43,550 nt of DNA, taken from Bradymonadia bacterium. Its GTDB lineage: Bacteria > Myxococcota_A > Bradymonadia > UBA7976 > UBA1532. The DNA lies in the NCBI GenBank assembly GCA_046290225.1, contig JBKAGE010000014.1, forward strand, positions 1 to 43,550. Direction: 5' to 3'. This document shows positions 26,501 to 29,500 of this stretch, in pieces. A program made the position numbers. Numbering within the stretch: position 1 is the stretch's first letter; each line of letters begins with the position of its first letter.

Positions 26501-29500
26501 CGCGTGTCATCACGATCACGGCGCGAGCACCCACGGCGCCGGCCTCGCGGTGGGTGTGCCGGATACGATGCCGGAGTTCGGTGTGCAACTCTCTGCTGCG
26601 CTCGAGGCCGCCCGAGCAGGTGGCCATCTGAACTGAGTGCCAGGCCCGGTCTGGGGCGCCCTCAGGTCGTGCGTCAGGCTGCTCTGGCCTACATATGCTC
26701 GTGTGGTGGTGTGCTGATTCGGCACCGCCGAGACCAGCCCCGCTTCCCTTACCCCCCTCTTCTGACTACACTGCGCACCGTTTTGCCTCATCTCAACCTG
26801 CATCGAAGGGATCTCGGACATGTCCGAATTTTCCGACAGCCTCATCAGCCGCCTGAACAACCTCCAGAACCAGTACGGCGTGTACTTCGCCGGTCACGCG
26901 CGCATTACGCGTGACATCGGCATCATGGACAACCTCATCGAGCAGGCCGCCGGGCTGCTCAGCGAGGCCAAGCTCCGCATGGGCGACGCCGACGCGCAGA
27001 GCGCGGCGAAGGCCATCGACGAGGCCCTGAACATGTACCGCAACGAGCGGGAGGCCATCGCCAAGGCTCAGGCCGAGGGGGGCGACGACGCCGTCGAGGC
27101 GCAGATGCTCATGCAGTGGGCCTCTTTCGGCTACCACGTCTACCGCCGCCACTTCGCCGGCCACTCCCGGAGCACCCGCGATCTGGGCCTGCTCGGAGAG
27201 ACGATCGAAGATCTGACCCGCCTTCAGGGTGAGATGGGCGCCCTGGCCGAGGAGATGGAGCAGGCTGATCAGCCCTTCGCCAACGCCCGGGAGACCCTGG
27301 CCCGCAACCTCGAGGTCTACAAGAAGGAGCGCGGCGAGATCGTCGCCGCCCGCGGCGCTGGCTCCCTGGAGCAGCAGTCCGACGTGCTCGCTCAGGTGGC
27401 CAACGAGCAGTTCGGCCTCTACCAGGCCCACTTCGCCGGCAAGCCCCGCATCTCCCGCCGCCCGGGCACTTTGCAGCGCATCATCGACAACCTGACCCAG
27501 ATCAAGGATCGCATGGAGACCCTGAAGCAGCAGGGCCTGCGCTCCGAGGCGAACGATCGCAACATCGGCATCGTGGAGAACCGCCTGGGCTTCTACACCA
27601 AGGAGCTCGAAGAGGTGCGCCAGGTGCGCCAGGACACCCGCTTCGAGGATCTGGTGGGGGCCCTGGGCGCTGGCGCCAACGCGGTCTTCGAGATCTACTC
27701 GAAGAACTTCGCCGGTCAGGATCGAGGCACCCGCGACATCGCCCTGATGCGCACCCTCTGTGACGAGCTGTACGACATCGGCCGCCAGATGGAGGAGATG
27801 AGCCGGGTGAAGGACAACAACCAGAACGGCCACAACCTGATGACGGTGACCGACAACCTGGTGATGTACACCCGCGAGTACGACATGATCCTTGAGGCTC
27901 AGCCGAGCAAGTAAGGGATCTATGGCATTCCGCTGTATTCTGCCGCAGTGAAGCGGCGTCCTCAGCTCACATCTTGTTGGGGCTGGCACCTGAAGGTGCC
28001 CCCGATGGGACTCGAACCCACATCCAGCGATTTAGAGTCGCCCGCTCGGCCATTGAGCTACGGGGGCACAAGGCTGGGGCATTTTGTGCCCCAGCCTTTG
28101 GTGTATCAGCCCTTCCCCAATAATGGCAGCGCCATTCGCCCTGCGTCTGTTGCAAACGCCGTGGCCTGATGTTTGAGGTCAGGCTCTCTCCACACGCACG
28201 TGCGGCCTGTTCTGGGCACATGAGCCATCAGCTCGGCTTCGGAGGGCACGCCGTACACTACGACGATGCCTTGCTGGGGGCCATGCCGGGCGGCCCAGGC
28301 ATCCATGGCGTGAATCGCCTGAGCCATCCGTCGACCCTCTGGCAGATCGGTGCGCACGACAAAGTACAGACGCTCAGGTGCCATCTACGCGACTCGCTTT
28401 GTCCGAGCATCGGCGCGGGCCTGTCTCAGTCCGTCGTGGAGTTGAGGACCTCGCCCTTCGGCGACGGCTGCACGCCAGGCGTCGACCTCTGCCTTGGCGC
28501 GTTCGAGCGTGGATACGCGCTCTATTTCGGCGCCCTCGTAGAACAGCTCTACGAGTGCCACCACCCTCGATGTGCGGAGAAAGCCGAGCTCGTCCCATCG
28601 TGTATGTGGAGATTCTGACAGGGCCGGGTGGCGGCCACGAAGAATGTGGTAGGCGAGCAGATGCGCTCGGGTCTGCCGCCCCAGCTCTCGGGCTTCCGCC
28701 TTGAGCTGATGACGTGCTTGATGACTGGTCTCGCTGGCCTGATGACGCAGGGCGCGACCCTGGGTGGCCAGCTCTTCGATCTTGTGCTTGAGGTTCGACA
28801 GGTACGGCTTCATGAGGATCTCCTGTGTGTTGTGCCGTTTTGCTCGAAAGAGATGCGGAAAACGGCGCAGACAGGAGGCCCTCGGGGTGGGTGTACCTAC
28901 TCGTGTCGGTGTGCGTAGCTCATGGGCTTTACGGTAGCGAGATCGGGATGGGGGGTGTCAACTCTATTTTCGCGGGAGTGGCCGGGCTGTGCGTGTTTTC
29001 CTCGTCAGAATCGTTGTTTGGAGCGTTGGCCGAGAGTCATTTTGGGCAGTGACGGGGGGCAGCGGCTGGGCCTTTGTAGGCAGTCGTCGCTTCGCTCCGC
29101 CTGCGTAGGCGCTGGGCCTTCGGCAGCCCTTCGGGCCGCCTCGTCCGGCGCGTACACGTTCGGGCACCTGCTGACGCAGGCCCAGCCGCTGCCCCCCGTC
29201 ACTGCCCAAAATGACTCTCGGCCAGCACTCTAGAATTCGATCACGATCGACACCCGCGACGAAGCCCCCTCGGGCAATGTGTAACGCGGCGAAGACAGCA
29301 CCCCCACCAGACACTTCCGCTGCGTTTTGCTCAAACTCTCCCCGCCAAGCATCGGCTCCAGAACGTGATCCGACGCCACCCCCGTCGAAGCGTTCACTCG
29401 GGCTGTCCACTTCAGCGCCCCCGGCGCCGAGACCCCTTCGAAACACGCCGCCAGCCTCGGGCTGCGGGCGGCCACCTGCAGGCGGAAGCGCGACAGCCAC

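Follow-up and report, generated by a model that had tools for sequence, protein, structure and literature searches.

The window, a stretch of 43,550 nucleotides from a Bradymonadia bacterium, probably carries an intact and self-contained translation module of 1 kb that derives from phages and was inserted into the bacterial chromosome. We put the probability of this reading at roughly 60%, and the way in which the circuit would work is a proposal that we infer from comparison. On the minus strand, the module consists of a promoter-like element followed by a mini-leader, the genes g00776 and g00775, and a tRNA with anticodon CUA (Table 1). A preliminary description of this DNA had already proposed a phage module made of a small Pth2-like protein and a suppressor tRNA, with a chromosomal copy placed after a host operon, and both the phage loci and the operon of the relatives support that proposal. 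It had missed a fourth part, however. The comparison of the loci identifies this part as a leader in which an RGPP motif lies behind an in-frame stop codon, and this stop covaries with the anticodon of the tRNA.

Table 1. Parts of the module, listed from upstream to downstream.
Feature	Position	Strand	Remarks
Promoter-like element	28931..28961	-	TTGACA 28961-28956, 19-nt spacer, TACCGT 28936-28931; 7 nt to leader ATG
Leader mini-ORF, M-S-Y-A-H-R-H-E + TAG (28899-28897)	28897..28923	-	24 loci have a leader of this design ahead of the helical gene
Read-through extension of the leader	28810..28896	-	CGA GGG CCT CCT (Arg-Gly-Pro-Pro) 28884-28873; TGA 28812-28810
Ribosome-binding tract of g00776	28814..28825	-	AGGAG 28824-28820; paired with Gly-Pro-Pro codons in the predicted fold
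g00776, 142-aa all-helical protein	28385..28813	-	conserved partner of the hydrolase
g00775, 92-aa shortened, divergent PTH2-family protein	28106..28384	-	homology and fold model
Hairpin between g00775 stop and tRNA, 10-bp stem, 5-nt loop	28072..28096	-	read from the sequence
tRNA, anticodon CUA	27995..28067	-	ARAGORN and Rfam

The design of the leader can be written as the pattern M-x(3-15)-stop-x(1-8)-R-[GA]-P-P. This pattern occurs 25 times in the 441,549 bases of the window and the loci, always on the module strand and just upstream of the helical gene, against a background of 53 occurrences in the 8.58 Mb of the host genome. Seven to twelve codons precede the stop, and they encode no signal sequence. 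The stop matches the anticodon in all 20 loci that have both (14 TAG with CUA, five TAA with UUA and one TGA with UCA), although related loci, here and in the other counts of leaders and of linkage, are not independent of one another. The Arg-Gly-Pro-Pro peptide beyond the stop is conserved in 24 of 24 loci, and it is written with six codons for Arg, four for Gly, and CCT, CCC, CCA and CCG for Pro. Because the leader stop tracks the anticodon, the tRNA(CUA) gains a target; together, the match and the conserved peptide after the stop point to the leader UAG as a natural read-through target of this tRNA. The leader is missing from seven distant loci in which the gene and the tRNA are linked (L005 to L007, the two mycobacteriophages, Lak-A1 and LR756500). 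As reported in the part of PMC12992588 consulted here, RGPP was the strongest arrest motif tested, and its effect was tolerant of context and resistant to EF-P.

In the predicted minimum-energy folds of all 24 loci, the Gly-Pro-Pro codons pair with the ribosome-binding tract of the helical gene, which ends 0 to 5 nt before the start codon. For the leader RNA of the window the predicted energy is -42.3 kcal/mol (z = -3.64), and none of 200 shuffled sequences folded as well. Compensating changes are seen in the pair formed by the wobble base of the Gly codon (U:A 13, A:U 2, C:G 2 and G:U 1). The CCUCC tract could be conserved in part for RNA pairing alone. Downstream, the TGA that closes the leader extension overlaps the ATG of g00776 (ATGA). 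In both proteins an Ala-Ala ending is frequent among the homologues, and we considered it as an ssrA-like degron; this candidate was rejected because such ends coincide with a ribosome-binding tract and an ATGA overlap with the next gene, which is a simpler reason for them.

Upstream of the leader, TTGAC is found 33 to 38 nt ahead of the ATG in 17 of the 24 loci, a count for which L019 and L032 were corrected by eye. The spacer of the promoter-like element is 19 nt long in the window compared to 16 to 17 nt in the phage loci. A consensus promoter and terminator scan of positions 27800 to 29300 returned nothing; the promoter-like element fails the scan's rule for the second hexamer. The hairpin between g00775 and the tRNA is followed by no T run, and it was not reported by the terminator scan.

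The foreign loci that hold relatives of g00775 confirm the linkage described previously, while the count has changed: of 32 distinct loci, 20 have a suppressor tRNA, where the preliminary description gave 13 of 22. Most of the 12 loci that have none are either contigs shorter than 8.1 kb or cases in which the match falls at a contig end. In a phage of 402 kb, the 29 tRNAs lie in arrays (9-14 and 46-57 kb), and the sole isolated tRNA is one with anticodon CUA at 5 kb from the hydrolase gene. Similarly, the CUA tRNA of a 315-kb phage stands apart from seven other tRNAs and 3.2 kb from the gene, and two contigs (136 kb and 169 kb) have a CUA tRNA as their only tRNA. The suppressor also adjoins a Pth2-like gene in five of five further records, which comprise two mycobacteriophages (IkeLoa and ScoobyDoobyDoo), Lak-A1 and two huge phages (LR756500 and LR745208); in Lak-A1 the gene lies 700 bp from a tRNA(UUA).

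The preliminary description called this module undescribed. It is a conserved phage module, as claimed, but PTH2-like genes within the tRNA arrays of cluster C mycobacteriophages have already been published, in a paper of which the part consulted here is silent on suppressor tRNAs (Morgado and Vicente 2018, PMC5966550). These genes belong to the same wider family (31-34% identity to g00775) and lie among phage tRNAs and a tmRNA, and a tRNA(CUA) comes next downstream, at 250 bp in IkeLoa and 180 bp in ScoobyDoobyDoo. On the other hand, they are full-length and annotated as peptidyl tRNA hydrolase, and neither a helical partner nor an RGPP leader was found with them.

The tRNA of the module is the sole tRNA that ARAGORN reports in the window, and Rfam matches positions 27997 to 28067 over the full model (1-71) with 65.1 bits and an E-value of 4.8e-12. 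Both tools and the gene coordinates agree with the earlier placement of a CUA tRNA 38 nt downstream of g00775. With its canonical structure and CUA anticodon it is of the amber-suppressor type, and no second CUA tRNA occurs among the 96 tRNA genes that ARAGORN finds in the 8.58-Mb genome. CCA is not encoded, and a 6-bp hairpin (27985-28000) overlaps the 3' end. ARAGORN labels this tRNA 'Pyl', a label that reflects the anticodon only; a search of the whole genome for PylS gave no TIGR02367 match above the cut-off (best 23 bits compared to 178). Among 156 ordinary tRNAs compared, the nearest are of the Arg, Met and Lys types at just 70-80% identity, which indicates no clear isotype, and the Lys identity proposed previously is a guess.

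As previously described, g00775 encodes 92 amino acids and belongs to no Pfam family at E ≤ 1e-3: our new search gave DUF4192 as the best match, at E = 0.0031 and below its cut-off. Neither g00775 nor its 17 closest sampled relatives matched the Pfam PTH2 family (PF01981) at E ≤ 1. The 81 other clusters of homologues likewise contain no Pfam domain, a figure that was the same on recount. A match absent from the earlier account is to phrog_1866 of PHROGs, a family of unknown function (E = 2.4e-7). A new AlphaFold2 model built on a 30-row alignment (pLDDT 95.7) bears out the cut-down Pth2 fold proposed before, since the best 13 rows listed by Foldseek against the PDB are all Pth2-family chains (probability 1.00, TM 0.56-0.64) and the next row has a probability of 0.18.

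The likeness had been considered purely structural. It is indeed seen in the fold, but it extends to the sequence as well. A narrow family profile (A1) gave five PDB matches at E ≤ 10, three of them Pth2 proteins (E 0.66-1.3) and two TetR-type regulators, so that the Pth2 match holds while the earlier statement of only four matches, all Pth2, does not. Distant homologues in L005, L006 and L008 score above the Pfam PTH2 cut-off (29-37 bits compared to 23), as do 18 of 71 sampled relatives. When g00775, its close relatives and the intermediates were combined in a bridging profile (A3), all seven PDB matches were Pth2 proteins, with E-values from 6e-10 to 4e-6 and alignments that span almost the whole protein. 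Judged by this bridging and by the predicted fold, g00775 is a shortened, divergent member of the PTH2 family.

Compared to PTH2 proteins of solved structure (2zv3, 3erj/1rzw, 1wn2, 1q7s, 1rlk and 1xty), it shares the fold and the N-terminal VVRxDL..G(K/R)..AQ..HA motif. It differs from them in length (92 residues compared to about 115), through three deletions (one following helix 1, one in the middle loop and one at the C-terminal helix), and in being always paired or fused with a helical partner behind a gated leader. The catalytic residues of the Pth2 of S. solfataricus are presumably K18, D86 and T90. K18 of 1xty aligns with Arg18 of g00775, at a position that is R or K in most members, and the invariant Glu67 is the aligned counterpart of the Asp in DAGxT, while the position of the Thr is variable. 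These changes are conservative, although the canonical set is not kept, and Asp69 is a new invariant residue. The mini-Pth2 genes have no internal stops.

Less can be said of g00776. It matched nothing in Pfam or PHROGs, the protein atlas gave nothing usable on its function, and Foldseek found no PDB match at E ≤ 1e-3. The best score in a wide VIA search (Z = 7.8) was to a 48-residue helical hairpin and is within the noise for helical models. Its association with the hydrolase is clearer. In at least 23 loci the helical gene and that of the hydrolase are neighbors, and natural one-piece fusions of the two proteins exist in P0089 and P0090 (hhalign of P0089 with the helical family: probability 93.3, E = 2.6e-7); a word search for longer proteins returned P0085 only. 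In the window, the TAG that ends g00776 is directly followed by the ATG of g00775, which is in frame with it. Read-through of this TAG had been regarded as unsupported, a view that the two natural fusions now argue against.

The module lies after a host operon and beside a dispersed host repeat. The upstream operon is kept in five relatives, and the module is absent from the four of them that were examined. Our profile search, like the earlier one, matched its protein in 0 of 400 other genomes of the phylum, and a scan of the genome collection gave a single weak match of 16 residues. The GC3 of g00775 and g00776 is 0.67-0.68 compared to 0.76-0.92 for the adjacent genes. Taken together, the lower GC3, the missing matches in the phylum and the module-free operon of the relatives support a foreign origin.

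A piece of phage DNA that arrived recently and does nothing for its present host, whatever its role in phages may be, would also be foreign, and such a reading has to be considered. It would fit a module that is present as a single copy, is known from one genome only and has a lower GC3 than its neighbors, in a host that retains RF1 and a full-length PTH2 of its own. The 19-nt promoter spacer would fit as well, as would the lack of adjoining phage genes: the six flanking proteins, which are the immediate neighbors and the only ones scanned, have no phage family in Pfam or PHROGs. However, all of the parts are intact, including the promoter hexamers, the leader with its RGPP, the hairpin, both reading frames and the 65-bit tRNA. 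In addition, short contigs from marine runs of two studies match the module, one of 197 bp that is identical to positions 28253-28449 and one of 180 bp with seven differences at 28757-28936, and one of these studies may be the source sample. The matching runs are two DNA runs, in which the module has a small share, and no RNA run is among those listed. We consider a functionless remnant unlikely.

We propose instead that the module responds to stop-codon suppression. When there is no suppression, ribosomes would terminate at the leader UAG, and the ribosome-binding site of g00776 would remain paired to the Gly-Pro-Pro codons. If the tRNA(CUA) is charged and active, the leader UAG would be read through and the ribosome would stall on RGPP, covering those codons. 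The stall would free the ribosome-binding site, and g00776 and g00775 would then be translated, either in a coupled manner or as a fusion that arises when the g00776 TAG is read through in a second such event. The most likely activity of the pair would be to hydrolyse peptidyl-tRNA or N-blocked aminoacyl-tRNA that accumulates during stop-codon read-through, and these substrates would arise from stalled, non-stop or dropped-off ribosomes. It could be speculated further that the module is a natural sensor and actuator of stop suppression. Its own leader stop would be the dedicated target of the tRNA, and the pair would be a new rescue factor that is made only during read-through, as a fused protein in some genomes and here by the second read-through; having taken over the whole circuit from a phage, the bacterium may even control amber read-through in its own gene set, where TAG is the stop of about 10% of the genes. 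This wider version is tentative, and we regard it as possible rather than probable.

Another possibility is that the leader senses suppression and the pair then strengthens it, whether it protects or recycles the suppressor tRNA or opposes release factor 1, such that positive feedback flips the cell into a read-through state. The leader pattern, the fold and the covariation fit this reading too, and a shift from standard to alternative decoding during infection has been proposed, according to the part of the preprint consulted here (bioRxiv 10.1101/2021.08.26.457843). The phage loci do not avoid TAG as a stop: it closes 49 of the 161 ORFs picked in the CUA loci and, in the 315-kb phage, 59 of 346. 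Since the phages keep these stops, a strong suppressor would also affect their own genes, which weighs against the response proposed above, and for a switch timing may matter. The 315-kb phage (G408), which bears the module, is nevertheless not TAG-recoded: coverage by ORFs of at least 100 aa is 0.863 with the standard code and 0.931 with TAG as sense, which is below the controls with TAA (0.943) and TGA (0.956). Moreover, we know of no Pth2 that acts on release factors. While the present evidence fits such a switch and the proposed clean-up of peptidyl-tRNA alike, we take the switch to be distinctly unlikely. A separate candidate, in-frame stops within conserved phage genes, was discarded as antisense shadow frames of GC-rich DNA made up the bulk of what the tblastn screens returned.

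It is also conceivable that the pair acts on the ribosome itself, like ArfB, and releases ribosomes that are arrested on RGPP or stalled otherwise, including those on its own leader, which would amount to negative feedback. Pth2 enzymes act on free peptidyl-tRNA, however, and the helical protein matches no ribosome-binding fold. The fusion of the helical domain to the hydrolase in P0089 and P0090 would be in keeping with this role, and L007 has a tmRNA gene next to its Pth2-like gene and suppressor, while IkeLoa has one within the same tRNA array. Furthermore, the RGPP arrest is stable and EF-P-resistant in the portion of PMC12992588 consulted, and the short leader lacks a secretion signal that could relieve the arrest by pulling. 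On balance, we hold this role to be very unlikely.

Least probable of all is that the Pth2-like protein is a general accessory of tRNA arrays that recycles any peptidyl-tRNA in heavy phage translation, with the adjacent suppressor as inherited synteny: about 96% of the cluster C mycobacteriophage arrays have a PTH2-like gene, and the authors suggest that extra rescue factors accompany extra tRNAs (PMC5966550, part consulted), and in L006 the gene lies amid 19 tRNAs and a tmRNA with no suppressor, but in the 402-kb and 315-kb phages gene and suppressor are far from the arrays, the link spans three anticodon types and unrelated phage groups, and the leader stop follows the anticodon wherever both are present.

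The stop-suppression response proposed here resembles several known systems in part. Like the RAPP/RGPP attenuators (ApdA, ApdP, ApcA, SecM with RAGP, and the RAPP/RGPP uORFs of Streptomyces; PMC12992588 in the part consulted, PMC10951233, PMC7897499), it has a small upstream ORF that ends in an arrest motif and a downstream ribosome-binding site hidden in a predicted hairpin that a stalled ribosome would open. In contrast to them, an in-frame stop precedes the motif, and a ribosome would have to read through it to get there; the leader lacks a signal sequence, it would respond to a suppressor tRNA rather than to secretion activity, and the regulated genes are the helical and Pth2-like ones. 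We found no paper on leaders of this stop-gated RGPP type, and among the matches listed no natural arrest-peptide leader was tied to a phage suppressor tRNA.

The suppressor tRNAs of recoded phages (Lak, crAss-like and others; bioRxiv 10.1101/2021.08.26.457843, in part, and PMC6784885) are similar in being phage-borne with CUA, UUA or UCA anticodons. The one complete module-bearing phage tested is not recoded, unlike these, and the tRNA of the module appears to have a specific regulatory target and a copy in a bacterial chromosome. The part of the recoding preprint consulted here mentions neither hydrolase nor Pth nor tmRNA, and our literature searches found no paper joining peptidyl-tRNA hydrolase with phage stop-codon recoding, nor one joining suppressor tRNA, huge phages and 'peptidyl'. 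Finally, in synthetic amber-codon translational switches a gene is likewise turned on when a suppressor tRNA reads UAG (PMC6412442, part consulted); those switches are engineered, while the module is natural and would couple read-through to an arrest peptide.

Large phages that otherwise use the standard code often carry suppressor tRNAs, and in papers such as that on XacN1 no target was found for them (PMC5852040). A leader with an anticodon-tracking stop that hides a strong arrest motif would offer a concrete and testable target together with a regulatory logic, and it would make suppressor-tRNA activity a new input to arrest-peptide regulation. For genetic-code engineering, its design may provide a compact part of natural origin. 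The chromosomal copy suggests that a bacterium can take up such a circuit while retaining RF1 and using TAG as a stop. The PTH2 branch of g00775 comprises 921 representative clusters at E ≤ 1e-3, and the module would link this uncharacterised, widespread branch to stop-codon read-through.

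Of the 96 tRNA genes called by ARAGORN in this 8.58-Mb genome of 83 contigs, only one has the anticodon CUA, and it is the sole tRNA in the window, which is the entire contig C14. The ARAGORN call agrees with a full-length match of the Rfam tRNA model to 27997-28067 (65.1 bits, E = 4.8e-12), in keeping with the well-formed tRNA of the preliminary description. Since PylS had no match above its family cut-off in the genome, “tRNA-Pyl” is simply the ARAGORN label for this anticodon. The tRNA is the last element of a module that also comprises a promoter-like element, a leader interrupted by a stop codon, the gene of a helical protein (g00776) and the gene of a small Pth2-like hydrolase (g00775). 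The TAG stop of g00776 adjoins the ATG of g00775, and both ORFs lie in one frame.

Features of the module, in 5' to 3' order along the minus strand
Feature	Position	Strand	Remarks
TTGACA	28961-28956	minus	promoter-like, upstream of g00776
TACCGT	28936-28931	minus	second promoter-like hexamer
Leader: ATG at 28923, seven codons, TAG	28899-28897 (TAG)	minus	upstream of g00776
Arg-Gly-Pro-Pro	28884-28873	minus	four codons after leader TAG
g00776, 142 aa	28385-28813	minus	directly before g00775
g00775, 92 aa	28106-28384	minus	stop 38 nt upstream of tRNA
tRNA, anticodon CTA	27995-28067	minus	ARAGORN; sole tRNA in window

The contig is bacterial, and no phage families (Pfam, PHROGs) were found among six neighboring proteins. 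As judged from sequence, the module is a foreign insert of about 1 kb with all its parts intact, because the g00775-family profile had no match in 400 other genomes of the phylum, GC3 is lower in g00775 and g00776 than in the neighboring genes (0.67-0.68 versus 0.76-0.92), and the upstream operon is kept without the module in relatives. This operon, encoding 667-aa and 223-aa proteins, is conserved in 5 of the 30 relatives searched, and in the four examined neither the module nor the tRNA follows it. Two earlier claims, that homologues are absent from 400 other genomes of the phylum and that the chromosomal copy sits at the end of a host operon, are thus upheld. A scan of the genome collection for g00775 gave a single weak partial match. 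At the upstream edge of the insert, directly before the promoter-like element, lies an inverted repeat at 29010-29241 (74-nt arms, 85% complementary, 84 nt apart). It is one of a dispersed family that has dozens of copies spread over more than 30 other contigs, in many cases as inverted pairs some 500 bp apart, and it resembles a MITE or REP-type element. The host gene next to the insert on its upstream side (223 aa, 29230-29901) ends in TAG at 29230-29232, and an active amber suppressor would extend its product into the repeat element. The host itself still encodes RF1 (528 bits) and a full-length PTH2 (103 bits), and 215 of its 2084 long ORFs (about 10%) end in TAG. For the Bradymonadia copy alone, it could be speculated that the module is an inert remnant, which we consider unlikely. 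Elsewhere in the window, a 2129-aa RHS/YD-repeat-like protein (18637-25026) is followed by an M54-peptidase/TPR protein (25191-26636).

After the RGPP (Arg-Gly-Pro-Pro) codons, the leader frame stays open to a TGA that overlaps the g00776 ATG. A scan of 441,549 bases, comprising the window and the viral and metagenome loci (L numbers) that carry g00775 homologues, for the pattern M-x(3-15)-stop-x(1-8)-R-[GA]-P-P gave 25 matches. All 25 lay on the module strand immediately 5' of the helical gene; the background over the whole 8.58-Mb host genome was 53 matches. Both the leader and a suppressor-type tRNA (anticodon CUA, UUA or UCA) were present in 20 loci, L023 being left out as a near-copy of L020. 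The leader stop was the cognate of the tRNA anticodon in all 20, with no mismatch: TAG with CUA in 14 loci (the window, L001, L003, L004, L010, L011, L012, L014, L016, L017, L020, L021, L022 and L031), TAA with UUA in five (L013, L025, L029, L032 and L070) and TGA with UCA in one (L008). We attach no probability to this agreement because the loci are related to one another. By leader peptide, the non-TAG leaders form at least four separate groups, and the TAA leader of L013 is closely like the TAG leader of L012. Four further leaders had no matching tRNA in the available sequence (TAG in L015, L019 and L030; TAA in L027), and in seven distant loci (L005-L007, IkeLoa, ScoobyDoobyDoo, Lak-A1 and LR756500) the RGPP leader was absent from the region scanned.

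RGPP was conserved in 24 of 24 loci across synonymous codons (all six for Arg, all four for Gly, and CCT, CCC, CCA and CCG for Pro), which is evidence for apparent selection on the post-stop peptide itself. As described in the accessible portion of a published study (PMC12992588), arrest by RGPP is more robust than by any other RAPP-like motif, occurs with different N-terminal contexts and is resistant to EF-P, and in many bacterial phyla no tetrapeptide is avoided more; that portion makes no mention of suppressors, read-through or phages. In the minimum-energy folds of all 24 loci, the Gly-Pro-Pro codons pair with a purine-rich tract, which either spans the start of the helical gene or stops 0-5 nt short of it. 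For the window, the leader RNA has a predicted energy of -42.3 kcal/mol (z = -3.64), and the helix is present in both the minimum-energy and the centroid structure. The compensating changes at the Gly wobble base (U:A in 13 loci, A:U in 2, C:G in 2, G:U in 1, unpaired in 6) are evidence for the predicted sequestering hairpin. In 17 of 24 loci (by eye in L019 and L032), TTGAC occurs 33-38 nt 5' of the ATG of the leader, followed by a TAnnnT-like hexamer ending 6-8 nt before this ATG, with a spacer of 19 nt in the window versus 16-17 nt in the phage loci. The position of this hexamer suggests that the 5' leader of the mRNA would be very short or absent.

The best-supported reading of the module is a read-through sensor. 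The leader stop would be decoded by the neighboring suppressor tRNA, the read-through ribosome would arrest on RGPP and, in doing so, uncover the ribosome-binding site of the helical gene, and the helical protein and the hydrolase would then be produced. Because synthesis of the pair would be tied to suppression, its job most likely concerns the consequences of suppression, the most probable being the recycling of peptidyl-tRNA from ribosomes that pass stops and stall. Such a role is consistent with tmRNA genes that are close to the Pth2-like gene or next to it in L007, L006 and IkeLoa, and with the link between unassigned UAG codons and ribosome rescue made in the accessible part of a published report (PMC6207430). 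Another possibility is that the pair exerts positive feedback on suppression, which we regard as rather improbable; that it releases the arrested ribosomes is more doubtful still.

TAG stops were not avoided in the CUA loci, where they ended 49 of 161 ORFs (L001, L010-L022), or in a complete 315-kb phage (59 of 346), the ORFs being crudely picked in both cases. The retention of TAG stops in the phage loci counts against a strong, constitutive suppressor, and their frequency fits a regulated or moderate one. The 315-kb phage is not TAG-recoded, since reading TAG as sense gained less coverage than the TGA and TAA controls; under the standard code, ORFs of at least 100 aa cover 0.863 of its genome. 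The host, with about 10%, has a smaller share of TAG stops than the CUA-bearing phage loci do.

In at least 23 loci, a g00776-type gene immediately precedes the hydrolase gene, mostly with an ATGA or GTGA overlap. In-frame TAG-ATG junctions occur in the window, L001 and L011, two of these three loci being related. The AlphaFold model of g00776 is all-helical (pLDDT 86.6), and no usable match was found in Pfam, PHROG, the protein atlas, Foldseek PDB or a wide structure search. In two homologues, P0089 (222 aa) and P0090 (221 aa), one polypeptide joins a g00776-like N-terminal half to the hydrolase as the C-terminal half (hhalign of P0089 with the helical family: probability 93.3, E = 2.6e-7). 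These natural fusions argue that the two proteins would act together, and amber read-through at the g00776 TAG of the window could possibly yield the same architecture.

The hydrolase had been described as lacking a Pfam family and as having a Pth2-like fold, and both statements hold. No Pfam family matched g00775 at E<=1e-3, and none of its 81 homologue clusters (51-74% identity) has a Pfam domain; phrog_1866, a phage family of unknown function, matched at E = 2.4e-7. With the AlphaFold2 model (30-row alignment, pLDDT 95.7), the first 13 among the Foldseek PDB matches listed are all Pth2-family chains, and the next has a probability of 0.18. The claim that the family profile reaches only Pth2 proteins in the PDB held in part: the narrow profile matched solved Pth2 proteins at E = 0.66-1.3, but two of its five matches were unrelated regulators. 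An exhaustive profile search gave 921 representative clusters at E<=1e-3. Pfam PTH2 matched 26 of 71 sampled relatives at E<=1e-3, 18 of them above the cut-off (23 bits), with none of the 17 closest above it; the distant viral homologues of L005, L006 and L008 scored 33, 29.4 and 37.5 bits. A bridging profile of g00775, close relatives and PTH2-scoring intermediates had seven PDB matches, all Pth2, nearly full length and at E = 6e-10 to 4e-6. The Foldseek and bridging-profile matches place g00775 in the PTH2 superfamily, as a shortened and divergent representative. Aligned with the intermediates it has three deletions, and R11, D13, H25, E67, D69 and T75 are invariant in the wide alignment. 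The catalytic Lys of Pth2, which we take to be K18 in 1xty, aligns to Arg18 of g00775; the Asp of DAGxT, presumably catalytic like the Thr, aligns to Glu67, and the Thr position is not conserved. In L010, the N-terminal motif recurs at the start of a 272-aa ORF (9168-9986), which then diverges and lies directly upstream of the intact Pth2-like gene.

The proposed linkage of such genes to suppressor tRNAs was confirmed in 20 of 32 distinct foreign loci and in five of five further phage records, the latter picked to span groups and not a random sample. The 32 loci comprise seven viral ones (eight returned, one duplicate) and 25 metagenome ones (27 returned minus two duplicates of viral loci; L020 and L023 are near-identical). 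The 12 without a suppressor are L005 (260 nt between the match and the end of the contig), L006 (tmRNA and an array of 19 tRNAs; 6888-7303 and 11360-15978), contigs of 1.1-5.3 kb (L015, L019, L024, L026, L030, L033 and L034), matches at contig edges (L035 and L036) and L027, where a tRNA at 2346-2426 has an 8-nt anticodon loop containing TCA. Most loci have the suppressor 0.5-2 kb upstream, on the strand of the hydrolase gene; in the window and L016 one lies just downstream.

As a within-genome control, tRNA matches were mapped across whole records. In a 402-kb phage, arrays at 9-14 and 46-57 kb account for 29 of the 30 matches; the sole isolated tRNA, at 158.4 kb, is a CUA tRNA and is 5 kb away from the hydrolase gene. 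Of the eight tRNAs in the 315-kb phage, the CUA one stands by itself at 284.6 kb, at a distance of 3.2 kb from the hydrolase gene. The only tRNA of a 136-kb contig is CUA, 550 nt downstream of the gene and followed by tmRNA, and that of a 169-kb contig is a 90-nt CUA tRNA 11.5 kb away. In an annotated phage collection, g00775 matched 11 records and the L006 homologue 220 (206 Mycobacterium, 7 Prevotella Lak, 6 uncultured, 1 Mycolicibacterium). Five of these records were examined. In IkeLoa, tRNA(cta) comes 250 bp after the annotated “peptidyl tRNA hydrolase”; in ScoobyDoobyDoo, of a different genus, the order is the same and the distance 180 bp. In Lak-A1 a UUA tRNA 700 bp upstream is the only tRNA within 10 kb, and the nearest tRNA is CUA, 794 bp downstream, in LR756500 and UUA, 132 bp downstream, in LR745208. 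These positional data and the stop-anticodon covariation speak against a general tRNA-array accessory role for the Pth2-like protein, which is unlikely.

PTH2-like genes in mycobacteriophage tRNA arrays (PMC5966550) and RGPP arrest peptides (PMC12992588) are already in print, and suppressor tRNAs and peptidyl-tRNA hydrolases are listed together for XacN1 (PMC5852040) and Atu_ph07 (PMC6102473), with no link drawn, as far as the accessible portions of these papers extend. Supplements aside, the words hydrolase, Pth and tmRNA do not occur in the accessible text of the main preprint on phage recoding (bioRxiv 10.1101/2021.08.26.457843), nor does hydrolase in a 2026 jumbo-phage survey, and our literature search found neither a published Pth2-suppressor link nor a published natural stop-gated arrest leader. 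The present analysis assigns the small protein to the PTH2 family at sequence level and shows how broadly the gene-tRNA link extends over unrelated phage groups. It also adds the three-way covariation of stop and anticodon, the fusions that join the two proteins in nature and a bacterial chromosome with an intact copy of the module.

Several smaller observations concern the surroundings of these genes. Neighbors shared by the module phages (L003, L010, L011, L013, L017, L020 and others) include thymidylate-kinase-like and DUF3228 proteins and, just downstream of the hydrolase gene, a conserved protein that has about 380-410 aa and no family match. L007 (10795-11300) has the order Pth2-like gene, tRNA(CUA), phage-encoded tmRNA. 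ARAGORN reports odd anticodon loops at 2409-2563 of L014, one with a four-letter call (ctcg) and one reading TTCTAAT, which may be a further CUA tRNA. In the Bradymonadia genome (G000), the 96 tRNA genes include many duplicated isoacceptors and several dense arrays (C20 227-1226, with 9 tRNAs in 1 kb; C35 228492-229344; C37 77269-79067; C42 92366-93501), possibly foreign tRNA array units.
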